Counted from the first letter of the stretch, positions 34,920-45,250 are shown. The stretch is 64,000 nucleotides of DNA from Escherichia coli (GCF_003018255.1 NZ_CP027440.1), one strand, 5' to 3'. Translations and numbers: made by a program. Notes: generated by a model not told the origin, from the sequence alone.

Positions 34920-35495
34920 ATGCCCCTCTTACACCTGCTCCGCCAGAATCCGGTGATTGCTGCCGTTAAAGATAATGCCAGCCTGCAACTGGCAATCGAC
35001 TCTGAATGCCAGTTTATTTCCGTGTTGTACGGCAATATCTGCACCATTAGTCAAATCGTTAAAAAGATTAAAAATGCCGGAAAATATGCTTTTATTCATG
35101 TTGATTTGCTGGAAGGCGCGTCAAATAAAGAAGTGGTGATTCAGTTTTTGAAACTGGTGACTGAGGCGGACGGCATTATCAGTACCAAAGCCTCAATGTT
35201 GAAAGCGGCAAGAGCGGAAGGTTTTTTCTGTATTCATCGCCTGTTTATTGTTGATTCGATTTCGTTTCACAACATTGATAAGCAAGTTGCGCAATCGAAT
35301 CCGGATTGTATTGAGATCCTGCCAGGCTGTATGCCTAAAGTGCTGGGCTGGGTGACGGAGAAAATCCGCCAACCGCTGATTGCCGGCGGGCTGGTGTGCG
35401 ATGAAGAAGATGCGCGTAATGCGATTAACGCGGGTGTTGTGGCGCTTTCCACCACGAATACCGGGGTCTGGACGTTAGCGAAAAAATTGCTTTGA
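34920..35495 (+). CDS. ygcP: GlpP-like glycerol-3-phosphate-responsive antiterminator family protein
   Basis: 191-aa ORF following ygcO with a short spacer. Confidence 0.8.
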   Translation: MPLLHLLRQNPVIAAVKDNASLQLAIDSECQFISVLYGNICTISQIVKKIKNAGKYAFIHVDLLEGASNKEVVIQFLKLVTEADGIISTKASMLKAARAEGFFCIHRLFIVDSISFHNIDKQVAQSNPDCIEILPGCMPKVLGWVTEKIRQPLIAGGLVCDEEDARNAINAGVVALSTTNTGVWTLAKKLL

Positions 35496-37278: not shown

Positions 37279-38593
37279 TCGCACCTCCTACATTTCCCGC
37301 CGCCACCAGCGGGAGTGCTTTGGTTTCTGGTGCCCATAGCCAGGTCACAACAAAACCAACCAACAACACTACCGCCAGGAGCAATAAGGTGGCTTGCATT
37401 CCCCACTGCGCCAGCACCCACGGCAGCAGGCCAGTACTTACCGCCGCCCCCAACCGACTCATGGCGGTGGCAAAACCGACGCCCAGCGAGCGAATGTCAG
37501 TAGGAAAACTTTCCGCAGGCAAAATGCCCACCAGATTACTGACTGCCGAAATGGTGGTGCTGAAGAGAACAAAAAGCAGCAGCGTTAATGAACTGCCGGA
37601 AGGCAAACAGGCCATCACGACCAGCGTTGCCGCCAGCAGCAAAAAACTTCCCAGTAAAAATCTGCGATGCGCTAACAAGTGGGTCAACACTAACCCTAAT
37701 AACGCGCCAACAATTAACAACGCATTAAGCATCAGGCTGGCAGTCAGCGCATCTTCCAGACCAATAGTTTGGGCGATGGTCGGCAGCCAGGTATAAATCA
37801 CAAACCATGGGATTACGAGGCAGACAAAGAAGACGCTGTTAAACGCTGTGCGCCGCCAGTAGCGCGAAGAGAACAAGGTTTTGATGTGTTTATGGGTCGC
37901 CGTTGCCACTTCATCGCCCAGTAAAACATGGGGACCAAAATAGCGATGCACGATAGCGTGAGCTTCTGCAAAACGCCCCTGGCGCAGTAGCCAGCGTGGC
38001 GATTCTGGCGTTCCCCAGCGTAATAACGTAATCAACAATGCGGGCAGAGCTGCCGATGCCAGTAGCCAGCGCCAGGCCTCCGGGCTTTCGCTAATAAAGT
38101 GATGTCCGGCAATACTTGCCAGCACATAGCCTACGGTCCACACCACGCTGAATGCGCCCAGCAAAACACCGCGATGGCGGCGCGGAGAAAATTCAGCCAG
38201 CAAAGTGTGACCGACTGAGTAATCGCCTCCCAGACCAATGCCGATCAAAATGCGCAGTCCAATAAGATGCTCTGGCGTGGTGGCAAAAAATTGTAAGAAC
38301 GAAGCGAGCGTAATCAGCAAAAAGCTGAAGGTGAAGATTTTTTGCCGACCAATATGGTCGGAGATCCACCCCAAAACCAGGCTACCGATAAACAGGCCAA
38401 GTAGCGCCGAGCCGCCGATCATTCCCGCCATAAACGGCGTCAGTTGCATGGCGGGTGTAAGCTGAATAATGGCGTAACCAATGACGCCGAGGACATAACC
38501 GTCGGTCAGGTGTGCGCCGAAAGTGAGCGCAGCAATGCGGCAGTGAAAACGGTTAAGTGGTAAATCATCCATTCGCACCGGTGAAGTGTTCAT
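37256..38593 (-). CDS. ygcS: MFS transporter (sugar/metabolite:H+ symporter family)
   Basis: Start at MNTSPVRMDDLPLNRFHCRIAAL, giving 445 aa; 12-TM hydrophobic pattern. Confidence 0.85.
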   Translation of the reverse strand: MNTSPVRMDDLPLNRFHCRIAALTFGAHLTDGYVLGVIGYAIIQLTPAMQLTPFMAGMIGGSALLGLFIGSLVLGWISDHIGRQKIFTFSFLLITLASFLQFFATTPEHLIGLRILIGIGLGGDYSVGHTLLAEFSPRRHRGVLLGAFSVVWTVGYVLASIAGHHFISESPEAWRWLLASAALPALLITLLRWGTPESPRWLLRQGRFAEAHAIVHRYFGPHVLLGDEVATATHKHIKTLFSSRYWRRTAFNSVFFVCLVIPWFVIYTWLPTIAQTIGLEDALTASLMLNALLIVGALLGLVLTHLLAHRRFLLGSFLLLAATLVVMACLPSGSSLTLLLFVLFSTTISAVSNLVGILPAESFPTDIRSLGVGFATAMSRLGAAVSTGLLPWVLAQWGMQATLLLLAVVLLVGFVVTWLWAPETKALPLVAAGNVGGANEHSVSV

Positions 38594-38686
38594 CTTTACC
38601 CCTTCATTGTCCGGTAATAAGAACGGCTTCTCGCCTGAGAAGCCGAAAAGGCAACGCCCCGTCATCGCGGAACGCTGCCTGACACA

Positions 38687-40141
38687 TTATTTTTCAATCG
38701 GATAGATAGTACCCGTATTCATAATGCCGTTAGGATCGAACTGCTTTTTCAGCCCTTCCAGCAACGCCCACGCGCTGCCGTGTTCCAGTTTGCTCCAGTG
38801 AACGCGATGTTTACCGATACCGTGGTGGTGCACCATCGAACCACCGAGGCGAATGGTTTCTTCGCAGATGATTTTGTTGAGCGGATTGTGGTACTTGTCG
38901 ATTTCCTCTTCCGGCTTACAGTCAACGACGTTGTAGTCGTAGACGAAGTACATGTTGGTGCCGTTCTGATAGCTATGAGAGGAGTGACCGCCCAGCATGG
39001 TGATGTCGTCGGCATGCGGGAACTCGGTACGAATACGGTTAATAACGCTTTCGTAGATTTCGTGGATGCAGCTCCAGCAGCCGGACACTTCGGTGGTAAA
39101 GCCCATGTTGCCGGTTTTGAGGATCTGCACACGTTCAGCGGCCACTTTATCCGGCCCCCAGTTCAGGTGATTAAACCAGGTTTCGATCAGCTTGCTGTCC
39201 ACTCGCTGGCATTGCGGGTAACGTGCCACGATTTCAGCAATCCCTTCGCCTGTCGCCTTCGCAATGCGAGGGTTACCTTCAGCCATAAAGATCAGCACAC
39301 ATTTACCATCGGCAAAATGGGTGAAGTGTTGGGTGCCATCTTCAGCGTCATACAAACGAGCGATCGACGGACGATACCCTTCCACCATGATTTCACGCAG
39401 GATGTTGAAGCCGGTTTTCATGTCTTCCAGCACATAGCCATAGAAGAGATTGTTTTCCGGCGTAAATTTGAAGATTTTCACTGTGACTTCAGTGATATAG
39501 CACAATGCACCTTCGTTGCCGATGATAATGTGACGAATGTCCGGGCCTGCCGCGCGGCGTGGTACGTTTTTAATACGTGTGACGGTGCCATCAGCCAATA
39601 CTGCTTCCAGACCAACGACCATATCTTCGATTGCGCCGTAGAGTGTGGAGAACTGCCCGATACTGCGGGTTGCTACCAGGCCGCCCATCTGCGCCAGCGG
39701 TTTTGATTGCGGTGAATGCCCCGTGGTGTAACCTTTTTCACGCAACGTGTTTTCCAGCACCTCCAGCGGAACACCACATTGCGCCGTGACCTGCATATTC
39801 TCAATATCAATATTAATGATTTGATTCATGGCAGAGCCGTCGAGCACCACCGAGTTTTCCACAACGGTTTCCAGTCCACCCTCGGTAGCGGAAGCACCGG
39901 TACGCGGCACACCGTTAATTTTGTGTGCATTCATAAAATTCAGTACACGAGAGACTTGTTCTGTGGAACCGAGTTTTACGACCGCTGCCGGAATCGGCAA
40001 AGTATAAATGCCATGAATATCCGGAAATTTGCGAAAACGGTCAATACTGTTTTTCTTTAATACTGTTTCATCGGTAATTACGCGATCTGCACCAACAATT
40101 TCCTTTAGCTGGTCGACAATCGCTGCGCGAGATAAAGACAT
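38687..40141 (-). CDS. ygcU: FAD-linked oxidase (alkyl-DHAP-synthase/glycolate-oxidase-like)
   Basis: 484-aa ORF with N-terminus MSLSRAAIVDQLKEIVGADRVITDE (FAD-binding PCMH type). Confidence 0.85.
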   Translation of the reverse strand: MSLSRAAIVDQLKEIVGADRVITDETVLKKNSIDRFRKFPDIHGIYTLPIPAAVVKLGSTEQVSRVLNFMNAHKINGVPRTGASATEGGLETVVENSVVLDGSAMNQIINIDIENMQVTAQCGVPLEVLENTLREKGYTTGHSPQSKPLAQMGGLVATRSIGQFSTLYGAIEDMVVGLEAVLADGTVTRIKNVPRRAAGPDIRHIIIGNEGALCYITEVTVKIFKFTPENNLFYGYVLEDMKTGFNILREIMVEGYRPSIARLYDAEDGTQHFTHFADGKCVLIFMAEGNPRIAKATGEGIAEIVARYPQCQRVDSKLIETWFNHLNWGPDKVAAERVQILKTGNMGFTTEVSGCWSCIHEIYESVINRIRTEFPHADDITMLGGHSSHSYQNGTNMYFVYDYNVVDCKPEEEIDKYHNPLNKIICEETIRLGGSMVHHHGIGKHRVHWSKLEHGSAWALLEGLKKQFDPNGIMNTGTIYPIEK

Positions 40142-40210
40142 AGTAATTCCTTCCTGATAATAAAAATGGAATAATCATTAATAAGAGAAAACAGAAACCA
40201 CCGTTATGGA

Positions 40211-40996
40211 TTAGCGCACTAAATAACCGCCATCGACCACTAATAAATGCCCGTTGACATAATTCGATGCCTGACTTGCGAGAAACACGGCTGCGCCCAT
40301 TAAATCCTGAGTATCGCCCCAACGGTTTGCCGGAATATGATCAAGAACGCGCTGATTGGTTTCTGGATTACTGCGTGTCGCCAGCGTAATATCTGTTGCA
40401 TAATAGCCAGGGGCAATACCATTTACCTGAATATTATATTGACCTAGTTCATCACAATAAGCTTTGGTGAACCCGGCAAGAGCATGTTTAGTGGCAGAAT
40501 ATGCAGGTGACCATTGTCCACCTAAGTAAGAGAACAATGAACAGATATTAATAATTTTACCGCTTTTCTGCGGGATCATAATTTTTGCCGCTTCATAGCT
40601 TAACTCGAATGCGGCGGTCAGGTTCACATCAATCATCGGGTCCCAGTCGGCACGACCGAAATCCAGCACCTTATTCAGCTTACAAATACCGGCATTGTTA
40701 ACCAGAATATCAACTGTTCCGAAACGCTCACAGCAAGCAGCGATAATCTTCTGCGGCGCGCCTTCTGCGGTGATATCCACCTGCATGAAGTCCATCTCAA
40801 CACCCTGTTTTTCAATCATTTCCTTTGTTTTGCCGTTATCTTTAACGAAGCTTGGAATAAAGATATTTGCACCAGCTTTGGCCAGCGCCATGGCAAATGC
40901 CTGGCCTAAACCGCTATTCCCGCCGGTAACAATTGCGGTTTTACCTTTCAGGGAGAAAAAATCCATTGAGAACGCATTGAGAGATTCGATTGACAT
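40211..40996 (-). CDS. ygcW: short-chain dehydrogenase/reductase (SDR)
   Basis: Start at MSIESLNAF with GGAG ribosome-binding site, giving 261 aa; TGxxxGxG motif (IVTGGNSGLG). The longer ORF to 41071 is just the translated terminator hairpin. Confidence 0.9.
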   Translation of the reverse strand: MSIESLNAFSMDFFSLKGKTAIVTGGNSGLGQAFAMALAKAGANIFIPSFVKDNGKTKEMIEKQGVEMDFMQVDITAEGAPQKIIAACCERFGTVDILVNNAGICKLNKVLDFGRADWDPMIDVNLTAAFELSYEAAKIMIPQKSGKIINICSLFSYLGGQWSPAYSATKHALAGFTKAYCDELGQYNIQVNGIAPGYYATDITLATRSNPETNQRVLDHIPANRWGDTQDLMGAAVFLASQASNYVNGHLLVVDGGYLVR

Positions 40997-41020
40997 AGTT
41001 AGCTCCAATTTCCGTAAGGC

Positions 41021-41067
41021 AAAAAAAAAGAAAGGTAACTTCCCCCGCGAGAGGGAAGTTACCTTTC
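41021..41067 (-). terminator. strong intrinsic terminator-like hairpin about 30 nt upstream of the ygcW start codon
   Basis: Perfect 15-bp stem GAAAGGTAACTTCCC/GGGAAGTTACCTTTC with an 8-nt loop, followed on the minus strand by T9. Confidence 0.6.
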
Positions 41068-41314
41068 TCATTATCTCTGGTAACTGGAGATAATTTTTAT
41101 CATAAGGGCATAATCGCTAATGTGATCGTAATCACAGTGTTATATTCGAATTGTCAAATAATTTTAAAAAGCAGAAGCGTGATTACTCTCACACAACACC
41201 ACTGCTTTCCATGTTATTTCTTATTGCAATTACTAGAGACCTGAGAAAAGTAATCCACCTGAAAGGGCGGCTTACTTTTCTCTTTTTTTTGTCTATTACA
41301 AATGGGAATACGAT

Positions 41315-42592
41315 ATGCAACACAACTCATATCGCCGTTGGATAACCCTCGCGATAATTAGTTTTAGCGGCGGCGTTAGTTTCGATCTGGCTTATTTACG
41401 TTATATTTATCAAATTCCCATGGCGAAATTTATGGGATTCAGCAATACCGAGATAGGTTTAATAATGAGTACCTTTGGTATTGCGGCTATTATTCTTTAT
41501 GCCCCCAGCGGCGTTATTGCCGATAAATTTTCACACCGCAAAATGATTACTTCCGCGATGATCATTACCGGATTACTGGGTCTGTTAATGGCAACATATC
41601 CACCGCTGTGGGTAATGCTCTGTATTCAGGTCGCCTTTGCGATAACGACGATTTTAATGCTGTGGTCGGTGTCGATTAAAGCCGCCTCATTGCTGGGCGA
41701 TCATAGTGAGCAAGGGAAAATTATGGGCTGGATGGAAGGGCTGCGCGGCGTCGGTGTAATGTCGCTGGCGGTGTTTACCATGTGGGTCTTTTCTCGCTTT
41801 GCGCCGGATGACAGCGCCAGCCTGAAAACAGTCATTATTATCTACAGTGTGGTTTACATCTTGTTGGGGATTCTGTGCTGGTTTTTTGTTAGCGATAACA
41901 ACAACCTGCGCAGTACCAATAACGAAGAAAAACAGTCATTCCAGCTTAGCGATATCCTGGCCGTTTTGCGTATCAGTACCACCTGGTATTGCAGCATGGT
42001 GATTTTTGGTGTCTTCACCATCTACGCCATTCTGAGTTACTCCACCAACTATCTGACCGAAATGTACGGCATGTCGCTGGTGGCGGCGAGCTACATGGGG
42101 ATTGTGATCAACAAAATCTTCCGCGCGCTGTGCGGCCCACTTGGCGGCATTATCACCACCTACAGTAAAGTGAAATCCCCTACCCGCGTGATCCAAATCC
42201 TTTCCGTACTCGGCCTGCTGGCGTTAACTGCCCTGCTCGTCACGAACTCTAACCCGCAATCGGTCGCGATGGGGATTGGCCTGATTTTACTGCTGGGATT
42301 CACCTGTTACGCCTCACGCGGGCTGTACTGGGCCTGCCCAGGCGAAGCGAGAACACCGTCTTACATTATGGGCACCACGGTAGGTATTTGTTCGGTGATT
42401 GGATTCCTGCCGGATGTCTTCGTTTACCCAATTATCGGCCACTGGCAAGACACCCTGCCCGCAGCAGAAGCCTACCGCAATATGTGGCTGATGGGCATGG
42501 CGGCGCTTGGCATGGTGATTGTCTTTACCTTTTTGCTGTTCCAAAAAATTCGTACTGCTGATAGCGCCCCCGCAATGGCTAGCAGCAAGTAA
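41315..42592 (+). CDS. yqcE: MFS transporter
   Basis: 425-aa hydrophobic ORF divergent from ygcW. Confidence 0.85.
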   Translation: MQHNSYRRWITLAIISFSGGVSFDLAYLRYIYQIPMAKFMGFSNTEIGLIMSTFGIAAIILYAPSGVIADKFSHRKMITSAMIITGLLGLLMATYPPLWVMLCIQVAFAITTILMLWSVSIKAASLLGDHSEQGKIMGWMEGLRGVGVMSLAVFTMWVFSRFAPDDSASLKTVIIIYSVVYILLGILCWFFVSDNNNLRSTNNEEKQSFQLSDILAVLRISTTWYCSMVIFGVFTIYAILSYSTNYLTEMYGMSLVAASYMGIVINKIFRALCGPLGGIITTYSKVKSPTRVIQILSVLGLLALTALLVTNSNPQSVAMGIGLILLLGFTCYASRGLYWACPGEARTPSYIMGTTVGICSVIGFLPDVFVYPIIGHWQDTLPAAEAYRNMWLMGMAALGMVIVFTFLLFQKIRTADSAPAMASSK

Positions 42593-42618
42593 GCCAGGAA
42601 AATTACAGGAGAAAAATC

Positions 42619-44097
42619 ATGTCGAAAAAATACATCATAGGGATTGATGGCGGAAGTCAGAGCACAAAAGTGGTGATGTACGATCTGGAAGGTAATGTGG
42701 TTTGCGAAGGTAAAGGCTTATTGCAGCCGATGCATACGCCAGATGCCGATACTGCCGAACATCCTGACGACGATTTATGGACATCGTTATGCTTTGCCGG
42801 TCACGATTTGATGAGCCAGTTTGCCGGAAATAAAGAAGATATTGTCGGTATTGGTCTGGGCTCCATCCGTTGCTGTCGTGCGTTATTGAAAGCCGATGGC
42901 ACGCCCGCTGCGCCATTGATTAGCTGGCAGGATGCACGTGTAACACGTCCCTACGATCATACCAATCCAGATGTGGCCTATGTCACCTCTTTTTCGGGTT
43001 ATCTGACGCATCGCTTAACCGGCGAGTTTAAAGATAATATCGCCAACTATTTTGGTCAGTGGCCGGTGGATTATAAGAGCTGGACATGGAGTGAAGATGC
43101 TGCGGTAATGGATAAGTTTAATATCCCCCGTCATATGCTGTTTGATGTGCAAATGCCTGGCACCATTCTTGGGCATATCACACCACAAGCTGCGCTGGCG
43201 ACACATTTCCCGGCTGGGCTGTCGGTTGTTTGTACCACCAGTGATAAACCGGTAGAAGCTCTGGGAGCCGGGTTACTGGATGATGAAACTGCGGTAATTT
43301 CTCTTGGCACTTACATCGCATTGATGATGAACGGCAAAGCCTTGCCGAAAGATCCGGTGGCGTACTGGCCGATTATGTCTTCTATTCCGCAAACATTGCT
43401 GTATGAAGGTTACGGTATTCGCAAAGGCATGTGGACGGTGAGCTGGCTGCGCGACATGTTAGGCGAGTCGTTAATTCAGGATGCCAGGGCGCAGGATCTT
43501 TCACCGGAAGATTTACTCAACAAGAAAGCCTCTAGTGTGCCACCTGGCTGTAATGGGCTGATGACGGTGCTGGACTGGCTGACCAATCCGTGGGAACCGT
43601 ACAAACGCGGGATTATGATCGGCTTTGATTCCAGTATGGATTACGCATGGATATATCGTTCGATACTGGAAAGCGTGGCGCTGACGCTGAAGAACAATTA
43701 CGACAATATGTGTAATGAAATGAATCACTTTGCGAAGCATGTAATCATTACTGGCGGCGGTTCGAACAGCGATCTGTTTATGCAGATTTTTGCCGACGTG
43801 TTCAACCTTCCGGCACGACGTAACGCCATTAACGGTTGTGCAAGTCTGGGGGCAGCGATTAATACCGCGGTAGGTCTGGGGCTATACCCGGATTACGCAA
43901 CGGCTGTCGACAAAATGATTCGCGTGAAAGATATCTTTATACCGATTGAGAGCAATGCCAAACGCTACGACGCGATGAATAAAGGCATTTTCAAAGACCT
44001 AACCAAACATACTGATGTGATCCTGAAAAAATCGTATGAAGTGATGCATGGGGAATTGGGGAATGCGGATTCGATCCAGAGCTGGTCGAATGCGTAA
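42619..44097 (+). CDS. ygcE: FGGY-family carbohydrate kinase
   Basis: 492-aa ORF with N-terminus MSKKYIIGIDGGSQSTKVVMYD (sugar kinase ATPase fold). Confidence 0.85.
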   Translation: MSKKYIIGIDGGSQSTKVVMYDLEGNVVCEGKGLLQPMHTPDADTAEHPDDDLWTSLCFAGHDLMSQFAGNKEDIVGIGLGSIRCCRALLKADGTPAAPLISWQDARVTRPYDHTNPDVAYVTSFSGYLTHRLTGEFKDNIANYFGQWPVDYKSWTWSEDAAVMDKFNIPRHMLFDVQMPGTILGHITPQAALATHFPAGLSVVCTTSDKPVEALGAGLLDDETAVISLGTYIALMMNGKALPKDPVAYWPIMSSIPQTLLYEGYGIRKGMWTVSWLRDMLGESLIQDARAQDLSPEDLLNKKASSVPPGCNGLMTVLDWLTNPWEPYKRGIMIGFDSSMDYAWIYRSILESVALTLKNNYDNMCNEMNHFAKHVIITGGGSNSDLFMQIFADVFNLPARRNAINGCASLGAAINTAVGLGLYPDYATAVDKMIRVKDIFIPIESNAKRYDAMNKGIFKDLTKHTDVILKKSYEVMHGELGNADSIQSWSNA

Positions 44098-44735: not shown

Positions 44736-45069
44736 TGGTTTATCCCCGCAGGCGCGGGGAACTCATAGAGAAAAGAAACGGCAGCTTTGCCACTTCCGGT
44801 TTATCCCCGCTGGCGCGGGGAACTCCGCGTTTCTAATCTCACCGCCACGGCGATCAACGGTTTATCCCCGCTGGCGCGGGGAACTCACCCCTTTAACGTC
44901 ACCAGACCGCTAACGACGCGGTTTATCCCCGCTGGCGCGGGGAACTCGCGTAACCATTTTGATGGCGCTACCGAAATGGCGGTTTATCCCCGCTGGCGCG
45001 GGGAACTCGATCAACGGCCTGGCGGCTGCCTCTGAAATCTCGGTTTATCCCCGCTGGCGCGGGGAACTC
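44736..45069 (-). CRISPR. orphan type I-E CRISPR array: 6 repeats, 5 spacers of 32 nt
   Basis: Same repeat as the cas-adjacent array at a 61-nt period; the leader-distal repeat is a variant (TGGTTTATCCCCGCAGGCGCGGGGAACTC). Confidence 0.97.
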
Positions 45070-45250
45070 TCTAAACATAACCTATTATTAATTAATGATT
45101 TTTTAAGCCAGTCACAATCTACCAACTTTACAGTATCACACAAACAACACATCCATTATGTTAAAGAGCACTTAATCCATTGATTAAAAAGCTAAATATT
45201 TAAAATAACTCTATACAAACTAAAATCTACCAAACTTCGCCGCAATAATT
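45070..45250 (-). promoter_or_regulatory. leader of the orphan CRISPR array
   Basis: AT-rich sequence abutting the last repeat, beginning TCTAAACATAACC, which parallels the TCTAAAAGTATAC start of the cas-adjacent leader. Confidence 0.6.

Follow-up and report, generated by a model that had tools for sequence, protein, structure and literature searches.

A strong intrinsic terminator stands immediately before the start codon of ygcW, on the strand of that gene, in a 64,000-nucleotide stretch of Escherichia coli DNA (NZ_CP027440.1; we call this whole stretch the window, and count all positions from its first letter). What might a terminator do at such a place? As had been claimed earlier, there is no upstream minus-strand gene whose transcript it could end, because the neighbouring gene, yqcE, is on the plus strand, with its start at 41315. 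Between the two genes RefSeq has no annotation, and their divergent spacer in the window is about 98% identical to that of strain K-12. An earlier reading of this DNA (the original prediction) suggested either a leader attenuator or riboregulatory element controlling ygcW, or the 3' end of an unannotated small RNA (sRNA). The evidence described below, namely RNA 3' ends mapped in vivo and a conserved 5' element, supports the attenuator. We consider it probable (roughly 75%) that the ygcW leader, together with a twin leader in front of yqcE, is a CRP-activated attenuator of the GlpP type which is antiterminated by the product of the nearby ygcP gene.

Terminators in front of ygcW and yqcE

The two terminators and the transcription units behind them are as follows.

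41069-41028, minus strand: stem-loop of the ygcW leader intrinsic terminator, loop UCGC, with nine U residues at 41029-41021 (seen in the sequence, the fold, covariation and Term-seq)
41243-41282, plus strand: stem-loop of the yqcE leader intrinsic terminator, with eight U residues at 41283-41290 (seen in the fold and Term-seq)
40211-40996, minus strand: ygcW, encoding a KduD-like short-chain dehydrogenase/reductase (SDR), head of the unit ygcW-ygcU-ygcS-ygcR-ygcQ
41315-44097, plus strand: yqcE (major facilitator superfamily, MFS, transporter) and ygcE (FGGY-family kinase), the unit behind the twin leader

The minus-strand sequence at the ygcW hairpin reads GAGAAAGGUAACUUCCCUCU-CGC-GGGGGAAGUUACCUUUCUU, followed by nine consecutive U and by GCC. 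The perfect 15-bp stem (GAAAGGTAACTTCCC/GGGAAGTTACCTTTC) and the nine T/U residues after it (41029-41021, minus strand) named in the original prediction are indeed there, and a consensus scan which includes the flanking G.U and A.U pairs gives 19 pairs, 8 of them G:C, closed by a 4-nt loop. The hairpin has both marks of an intrinsic terminator, a G+C stem and a U-tract after it on the transcribed strand. It folds with -31 kcal/mol, as compared to -13.3 +/- 2.8 kcal/mol in 200 dinucleotide shuffles (z = -6.4), and not one of these shuffles reached its stability (0/200). As for its position, it lies upstream of the ygcW ATG (40996) and before the GGAG Shine-Dalgarno sequence (41006-41003), as had been predicted, the U-tract ending 24-25 nt from the start codon rather than roughly 30.

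A mirror image of this arrangement was found on the plus strand, where a twin hairpin followed by U8 sits 25 nt before the divergent yqcE ATG (41315). Its stem of 15 pairs is interrupted, and the terminator folds with -21 kcal/mol. Both hairpins have the same stem base (GAGAAARGUAA...UUACYUUUCUC), with a compensatory difference of G:C to A:U, and they also share about 22 nt before it, which read AGUUACC-AGAGAUAAU-GAGAAA-GGUAAC in the ygcW leader and AAUUACU-AGAGACCU-GAGAAA-AGUAAU in the yqcE leader. The 5' element of the two leaders can be summarized as AGUUACY-AGAGA-N3-4-GAGAAA-RGUAAC.

Do these hairpins terminate transcription in the cell? In the published Term-seq catalogue of E. coli K-12 (Adams et al. 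2021, PMC7815308) there is a 3' end at 2900311 on the minus strand, 38 nt upstream of ygcW, supported by 40,640 reads, and another at 2900556 on the plus strand, 36 nt upstream of yqcE, supported by 1,557 reads. Placed on the K-12 sequence, the first follows ...GUUACC (window 41034) and the second follows ...CUUACUUUU (window 41279). Their intrinsic-terminator scores are 15.8 (ygcW) and 11.4 (yqcE), a score of at least 3 denoting intrinsic termination, and their Rho scores, from Term-seq with bicyclomycin, are 0.50 (ygcW) and 0.61 (yqcE), neither end lying in a Rho termination region (PMC7815308). Rho-independent RNA 3' ends are present in vivo at both hairpins. Both are entries among the products of premature termination in 5' untranslated regions (UTRs) in this catalogue, without an assigned element: they are labelled 'orphan, upstream ORF' and the regulatory-element column is blank (PMC7815308). 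A promoter located inside or downstream of the ygcW hairpin, with no terminated transcripts, would speak against the original prediction, and this is contradicted by the Term-seq data.

A conserved 5' element overlapping the terminators

The shared part of the leaders contains the following features.

41079-41085, minus strand: ygcW strand X (AGUUACC), which would form the 5' strand of the antiterminator helix and stands at the very 5' end of the predicted transcript
41064-41078, minus strand: ygcW leader loop AGAGAUAAUGAGAAA with two GAGA-type repeats, a putative YgcP recognition sequence containing invariant columns
41057-41063, minus strand: ygcW strand Y (GGUAACU), which can pair with X (antiterminator) or with the 3' arm (terminator), the two being mutually exclusive
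41228-41255, plus strand: yqcE antiterminator element, composed of X' (AAUUACU, 41228-41234), loop AGAGACCUGAGAAA (41235-41248) and Y' (AGUAAUC, 41249-41255)

The loop between X and Y is 14-18 nt long. Taken alone, the X:Y helix has -6.7 kcal/mol in the ygcW leader and -1.4 kcal/mol in the yqcE leader, against -31 and -21 kcal/mol for the terminators; since it is so much weaker, termination should be the default, and a protein would be needed to tip the balance. When the nascent RNA is folded up to the terminator loop, the minimum free energy structure is the X:Y helix in 8 of 9 lineages, whereas the full leader folds as the terminator.

To see how far the element is conserved we collected 65 loci through a search with YgcP, taking one genome per species. 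The motif was matched 101 times in these loci; 100 of the matches are elements and one row is a chance match, which was later excluded. The pair of elements is kept in about 50 species of Enterobacterales, with two copies in nearly every enterobacterial locus, and wherever an open reading frame (ORF) could be identified downstream of an enterobacterial element, it was an orthologue of ygcW or yqcE, nearly always as a divergent pair. In an alignment of 93 elements (A1), GAG, GAGAAA and GU are invariant in the 5' half; transitions to G.U are tolerated in the 3' arm, and there is free variation in the upper stem and loop. An invariant 5' arm facing a G.U-tolerant 3' arm indicates, as judged from this alignment, that the 5' half is recognised in a sequence-specific manner.

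Both alternative helices are supported by covariation. For the terminator helix, 97.7% of the cells are paired, as compared to 60-68% when the partner is slid, and six pairs show double compensatory changes. For the antiterminator helix (X = AGUUACY, Y = RGUAACU) the figures on A1 are 84.5% versus 16-54%. A second alignment (A2) set the long-loop yqcE leaders of Serratia and Pantoea out of register, and a count based on pairing-independent anchors was used instead, which gave, for 59 distinct sequences, 93.2% paired versus 16-55% slid. Compensatory changes were found at X2:Y6 (G:C in 45, A:U in 13), which is also where the yqcE leader differs from the ygcW leader by a G:C to A:U change, at X5:Y3 (A:U in 56, G:C in 3) and at X7:Y1 (U:A in 46, C:G in 9).

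A covariance model of the element (R1) finds exactly two copies in the window, with 83.4 and 83.0 bits. Its matches on the opposite strands (27-35 bits, partial model) are the palindromic stems alone, and bidirectional termination was rejected, as each hairpin is followed by non-U sequence on the opposite strand. Rfam 15, searched over window positions 38000-44000 with E up to 1, returned as its sole overlap a chance-level rliE match (25 bits against a gathering score of 90).

Outside Enterobacterales, R1 finds copies in Firmicutes that are full-length but weak (23-34 bits). In Listeria, Bacillus and Thalassobacillus they precede operons encoding a YgcU-like oxidase with electron transfer flavoprotein (ETF) subunits, and others encoding a YgcW-like SDR with an MFS transporter and a kinase, Bacillus sp. 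DNRA2 having two copies; in Lachnoclostridium and Faecalibacterium they precede operons for glycerol-3-phosphate dehydrogenases of the GlpA/GlpD type which adjoin glpP homologues. The helix has changed its sequence there and kept its pairing (GUUGC/GCGAC, GUUUC/GAAAC, AUUGC/GCAAU). At gathering thresholds Rfam reports nothing on the Firmicute elements.

Whole ygc-like clusters occur together with the RNA element in Listeria sensu lato, Thalassobacillus and Bacillus sp. DNRA2 (loci L056-L061 and L063). They include a YgcU-like oxidase, ETF subunits, an MFS transporter and an FGGY kinase; YgcP is 55-59% identical, and the YgcW homologue of Thalassobacillus about 70% identical. The comparison points to a transfer of the whole regulon, with its cis-element, between phyla.

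Such conservation bears on two explanations that the 3' ends alone might suggest. One is that the hairpin belongs to an independent, CRP-induced, trans-acting sRNA with a length of about 55-65 nt, which would affect ygcW, if at all, only incidentally. The terminated species is abundant (40,640 'orphan' reads), and a strong hairpin with a long U tail is typical of an Hfq-binding module. On the other hand, the element occurs before two different operons per genome, in every case 25-35 nt from the start codon, and its conservation across phyla goes together with that of those genes; the conserved part is a 5' element competing with the terminator and not a free seed region; and the ygcW and yqcE leader RNAs are absent from the searchable sRNA tables derived from RIL-seq (a sequencing method in which interacting RNAs are ligated), the primary tables not being among those. 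We regard such an sRNA as improbable. A short RNA ending at the hairpin, as originally suggested, does exist in the form of the terminated leader itself, which ends at window 41034, and the suggestion holds in that trivial sense alone.

The other explanation is a passive or constitutive hairpin without conditional readthrough, be it a relic terminator, an insulator against the divergent promoter or an mRNA-stabilising 5' hairpin. Termination has indeed been seen in the sole condition in which the RNA was detected, and no induced state has been observed. Nevertheless, a constitutive stop at 25 nt from the start codon would shut off two operons which are conserved and comprise up to five genes, and a passive hairpin predicts neither a conserved X strand and GAGA loop nor covariation of X with the 5' arm of the terminator. 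The architecture is also common to a proven conditional terminator, that of B. subtilis glpD, and in Limnobaculum eriocheiris, where the element has decayed, the promoters are lost too. The chance that the hairpins are passive seems slim to us, and attenuation by a GlpP-type mechanism remains the preferred reading.

Several genomes carry unusual forms of the leaders. In Limnobaculum eriocheiris (L032:13878-13959) both leaders have collapsed to a single hairpin flanked by A9 and T9, with loss of the promoters, the CRP sites and the X/GAGA elements. It seems that the inverted leader copies have recombined with each other and caused a deletion, by which both operons would be silenced. In two other loci, L034 (16253-16334 and 16574-16655) and L041 (16308-16389 and 16588-16669), the upper stems and loops are identical within a genome and differ between genera, which suggests that the inverted leader copies undergo gene conversion (concerted evolution). 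Citrobacter youngae (L010:16247-16470) and Klebsiella spallanzanii (L012:12591-12820) have about 125 extra bases between the yqcE terminator and the start codon, a gap of 150 nt versus 24 nt elsewhere.

YgcP and the likeness to GlpP

The candidate for the trans-acting factor is encoded 5.5 kb from the ygcW hairpin.

34920-35495, plus strand: ygcP, encoding a GlpP-family antiterminator protein of 191 aa, the proposed trans-acting factor (PF04309 match)

YgcP matches PF04309 (G3P_antiterm) over its full length (173/173 profile positions, E = 1.4e-62), as well as the GlpP-family structures PDB 3KTS (E = 8.5e-28) and 1VKF (E = 8e-15). Annotations have for a long time named YgcP a 'putative antiterminator', and so a switch of this kind, known from Bacillus, is not a conceptual surprise. 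A description of a GlpP-type leader attenuator for E. coli or any other Proteobacterium was not found in the searchable literature.

In Bacillus subtilis, according to two papers (PMC9604022, PMC10573289), GlpP with glycerol-3-phosphate overrides intrinsic terminators in the 5' UTRs of glpD, glpFK and glpTQ; the founding work cited there is that of Holmberg and Rutberg (1991-92) and Glatz et al. (1996), reviewed by Rutberg (1997). The glpD 5' UTR is portable, and its activity depends on GlpP and glycerol, a glpP deletion abolishing induction (PMC9604022). B. subtilis GlpP is too distant to be among the best 120 YgcP homologues, and we compared the glpD 5' UTR instead, whose published sequence is ...CGGUC-CUGAGAUGAGGAGA-GACC-ACAGCACCAAAGUG...CACUUUGGCUGUUGUGGUCUC-UUUUU.

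The likeness is first of all one of layout. The glpD leader has a short helix around GAGA-type repeats, the 3' strand of which opens the 5' arm of the terminator (GGUC-CUGAGAUGAGGAGA-GACC in B. subtilis, AGUUACC-AGAGAUAAUGAGAAA-GGUAACU in E. coli). In both systems a short 5' UTR holds a promoter, a protein site (putative in E. coli) and an intrinsic terminator, one leader type is repeated before several operons of the regulon, a protein of the GlpP family (PF04309) is encoded with the regulon, an FGGY kinase belongs to it (GlpK or YgcE), and catabolite control is layered on top (CcpA or CRP). Among the marks of a GlpP-type system, E. coli has a PF04309 protein, a terminator between a (predicted) promoter and the start codon, and a repeated leader element. 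Forms intermediate between the two leader types occur in Listeria, Bacillus and Clostridia; in primary sequence, the similarity to glpD is low.

There are differences as well. The E. coli host is Gram-negative, its promoters are of the class II CRP-dependent type, its leaders form an inverted pair around shared promoters, and the terminator stem is extended over the second GAGA repeat. Moreover, the ygc genes are not glycerol genes, as they encode an SDR, a flavin adenine dinucleotide (FAD) oxidase, ETF subunits, MFS transporters and an uncharacterised kinase, and the ligand of YgcP is therefore probably not glycerol-3-phosphate.

It might be asked whether a protein is required at all. If the leaders were metabolite riboswitches, the GAGA loop and the helix would bind a small molecule directly; a conserved element at the transcript 5' end, followed by a classic terminator/antiterminator expression platform, is what one would expect of a riboswitch. 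The candidate aptamer, however, is about 30 nt long with one short helix around a loop of 14-18 nt, it matches no Rfam family, and all the loci examined contain a GlpP-family gene (the loci having been retrieved via YgcP). The architecturally equivalent glpD leader needs GlpP, without which it is not induced (PMC9604022). We consider a riboswitch very improbable.

Another question is whether a factor other than YgcP might act on the leaders, such as a ribosome on a leader peptide, a protein of the BglG/SacY type or a general factor. The connection to YgcP consists of homology and genomic association, which leaves room for this idea. Nevertheless, it seems very unlikely to us, as the element travels with a GlpP-family gene from Enterobacterales to Firmicutes, and neither of the specific candidates fits well. 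As to a leader peptide, the sole AUG of the ygcW leader (41071) occupies a column that varies (T/A/C/G) and has no Shine-Dalgarno sequence, its equivalent is absent from the yqcE leaders, and no conserved leader ORF was found in the alignment of elements. The longest ygcW ORF (40211-41071, 286 aa) begins at this in-frame AUG and reads across the hairpin; the RefSeq start gives 261 aa and, with the AUG varying in the alignment, both a leader peptide and a longer YgcW were rejected, in agreement with the original prediction, which called the N-terminal extension spurious.

Proteins of the BglG/SacY/LicT family (E. coli bgl, B. subtilis sacB and lic) stabilise, in the presence of substrate, a ribonucleic antiterminator (RAT) hairpin which overlaps the 5' arm of a terminator. 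The ygcW and yqcE leaders resemble these systems in having a weak antiterminator hairpin at the leader 5' end that overlaps the 5' arm of an intrinsic terminator. They differ in that the BglG/SacY/LicT systems use CAT and PRD proteins, phosphorylation by the phosphotransferase system and a RAT consensus, and a Pfam scan of nine cluster proteins found no CAT_RBD or PRD domain. The element is not a member of the BglG/SacY RAT family. HutP/hut and PyrR/pyr of Bacillus likewise rely on a ligand-activated protein which acts on a leader and refolds it between terminator and antiterminator, in the case of HutP through short repeats (XAG). The proteins are unrelated, though, and the logic is partly different: termination is what PyrR promotes, and the HutP site consists of two sets of three XAG repeats, whereas the GAGA repeats of the ygcW and yqcE leaders are enclosed in a hairpin loop.

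Predicted CRP-dependent promoters, the proposed switch and its surroundings

Upstream of the two leaders, the spacer contains a back-to-back pair of promoter regions, in which the transcription start sites (TSSs) are predicted.

41094-41102, minus strand: predicted ygcW promoter with an extended -10 (TG at 41102-41101, TAAAAA at 41099-41094), predicted TSS at about 41085-41087
41121-41136: CRP site 1, TGTGATTACGATCACA, a perfect consensus palindrome centred 41.5 nt upstream of the predicted ygcW TSS
41178-41193: predicted CRP site 2, CGTGATTACTCTCACA, 9/10 consensus positions, centred 41.5 nt upstream of the predicted yqcE TSS
41212-41220, plus strand: predicted yqcE promoter with an extended -10 (TG at 41212-41213, TATTTC at 41215-41220, which is TATTTA in K-12), predicted TSS at about 41226-41228

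In both leaders the predicted TSS lies 1-2 nt before the conserved element, and the ygcW start, at about 41086, falls within the interval (41070-41310) to which the original prediction assigned the start of an sRNA. CRP is known to bind in the spacer from chromatin immunoprecipitation in enterotoxigenic E. coli and from Footprint-seq, which gave a Kd of 1.7 nM for site 1, a site predicted earlier by PhyloScan; yqcE-ygcE has been ascribed to CRP activation from expression data, and a SELEX peak of the RpoD (sigma-70) holoenzyme lies within the spacer. In nearly all Enterobacterales leaders the best CRP-like site (8-10/10 positions) is centred 42-43 nt upstream of X1, and TGnTA is found 16-17 nt upstream of X1. 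With the predicted TSSs, and with binding documented for site 1, both promoters have the layout of class II CRP-dependent promoters. The two 3' ends are listed in the Term-seq sheet for LB at an optical density (OD) of 0.4 alone, and not in that for M63-glucose (PMC7815308); their absence from the latter fits CRP-dependent promoters. The original prediction was right about the ygcW hairpin itself, and did not include the two CRP sites at -41.5, the twin terminator of yqcE, the conserved 5' element or ygcP 5.5 kb away.

Two features near the ygcW promoter were set aside. A second hairpin (ATTATCTC...GAGATAAT, 41070-41094) was rejected as a leader structure, as it has its 5' arm in the -10/discriminator, upstream of the predicted TSS, and is also not conserved in other E. 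coli strains. The other is a mini-ORF of 7 codons, noticed by eye on the minus strand at about 41211-41188, a position upstream of the ygcW promoter.

Promoter geometry departs from the two-site E. coli arrangement in Ewingella (L036), an uncultured Enterobacterales metagenome-assembled genome (L037) and two Rahnella (L039 and L040). Their spacer is shorter than that of E. coli, and the strong CRP-like site is often about 80 nt, not 43 nt, from the first helix base of the leader; L037 has a single palindromic CRP-like site, whose distances to the two leaders are 44 nt and 79 nt.

The switch that we propose would operate as follows. From two sites, one centred at -41.5 for each promoter, cAMP-CRP would activate the back-to-back extended -10 promoters, and each transcript would start 1-2 nt before X (AGUUACY), to be followed by the loop with GAGA repeats and by Y (RGUAAC). 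By default, the downstream 3' arm would capture Y and the second GAGA repeat, and the terminator would form; polymerase would halt at the U-tract and a leader RNA of about 55-65 nt would be released. With inducer, YgcP would bind the nascent 5' element and stabilise the weak X:Y helix, so that the terminator is blocked and the polymerase continues into ygcW-ygcU-ygcS-ygcR-ygcQ and yqcE-ygcE. The inducer, i.e. the candidate ligand of YgcP, is probably the phosphorylated product of the FGGY kinase YgcE, if GlpK and glycerol-3-phosphate are taken as the analogy. As ygcE itself is under the switch, positive feedback would result if this product is the ligand. The whole would amount to an AND gate on two divergent sugar-utilisation operons, in which carbon limitation and a specific substrate are both required. 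The abundant terminated ygcW leader could, in addition, be a decoy that titrates YgcP, or act as an RNA in trans.

Several points weigh against this scheme. The Term-seq ends lie 3-4 nt within the stems, in the lower A.U-rich 3' arm, and not in the U-tracts, which is probably due to exonucleolytic trimming of the terminated leaders through the weak A.U/G.U base of the stem. For LB at OD 2.0, a condition in which one expects CRP to be active, the catalogue has neither end (PMC7815308). Both TSSs are predictions made from the extended -10 sequences, the antiterminator helix is short, and the link between YgcP and the leaders is one of homology and genomic association alone. Sequence similarity to the glpD leader is confined to the GAGA repeats and the layout, and the R1 scores in Firmicutes are weak. 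As the aligned sequences are for the most part orthologues, the covariation counts do not represent independent events, and all comparative loci were retrieved via YgcP, so the co-occurrence of element and YgcP arises partly by construction. A motif-first test in metagenomes had low power (80 of 120 matching stretches searched, 2 true elements); the single informative contig of this test encodes YgcP 1.5 kb from the element pair.

What would such a switch mean? It accounts for two 'orphan' 3' ends of E. coli K-12 and gives the uncharacterised YgcP concrete candidate RNA targets. To our knowledge, protein-mediated antitermination at intrinsic terminators of E. coli catabolic operons is rare, bgl being the sole textbook case, and the leaders described here would, if the scheme is true, add a second. 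Nor do we know of a well-defined RNA recognition consensus for the GlpP family, even in B. subtilis; our cross-species alignment offers a testable one, for which there is no Rfam model. A broader idea, which we put forward tentatively and hold to be slightly short of an even chance, is that the element is a cross-phylum 'GlpP box' (a helix of 5-7 bp, two GAGA repeats and a 3' strand shared with the terminator) reflecting a general recognition code of PF04309 proteins. K-12 would then hold, after BglG, its second protein-mediated antitermination switch at intrinsic terminators, one that answers to a phosphorylated YgcE metabolite and, with CRP, gates a cryptic catabolic pathway. In practical terms, a leader-reporter fusion could serve to screen for the substrate of the ygc cluster (transporters, kinase, SDR, and FAD oxidase with ETF), and the leader of about 60 nt with YgcP could be used as a portable inducible switch, like the glpD leader in Bacillus.

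Some minor observations concern the surroundings of the leaders. When window positions 40900-41400 were compared with 5,426 complete E. coli genomes, 359 had no match to the spacer, and strain PK8277 (H20) retains just 47 nt of it (window 41159-41205); the locus is therefore dispensable and sometimes deleted. 'YgcW' in a paper on PdhR is a slip for YbcW and was discarded. A further K-12 Term-seq 3' end (2892741, plus strand, 1,077 reads, window about 33464) falls within ygcN, about 110 nt into this first gene of the ygcN-ygcO-ygcP unit, and may reflect premature termination with an effect on the expression of ygcP. Finally, type I-E CRISPR repeats (CGGTTTATCCCCGCTGGCGCGGGGAACTC, period 61) lie between ygcE and queE (window 44797-45077) and are the known second CRISPR array of E. 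coli; the K-12 Term-seq 3' ends 2904041 and 2904075 bear the same repeat sequence.

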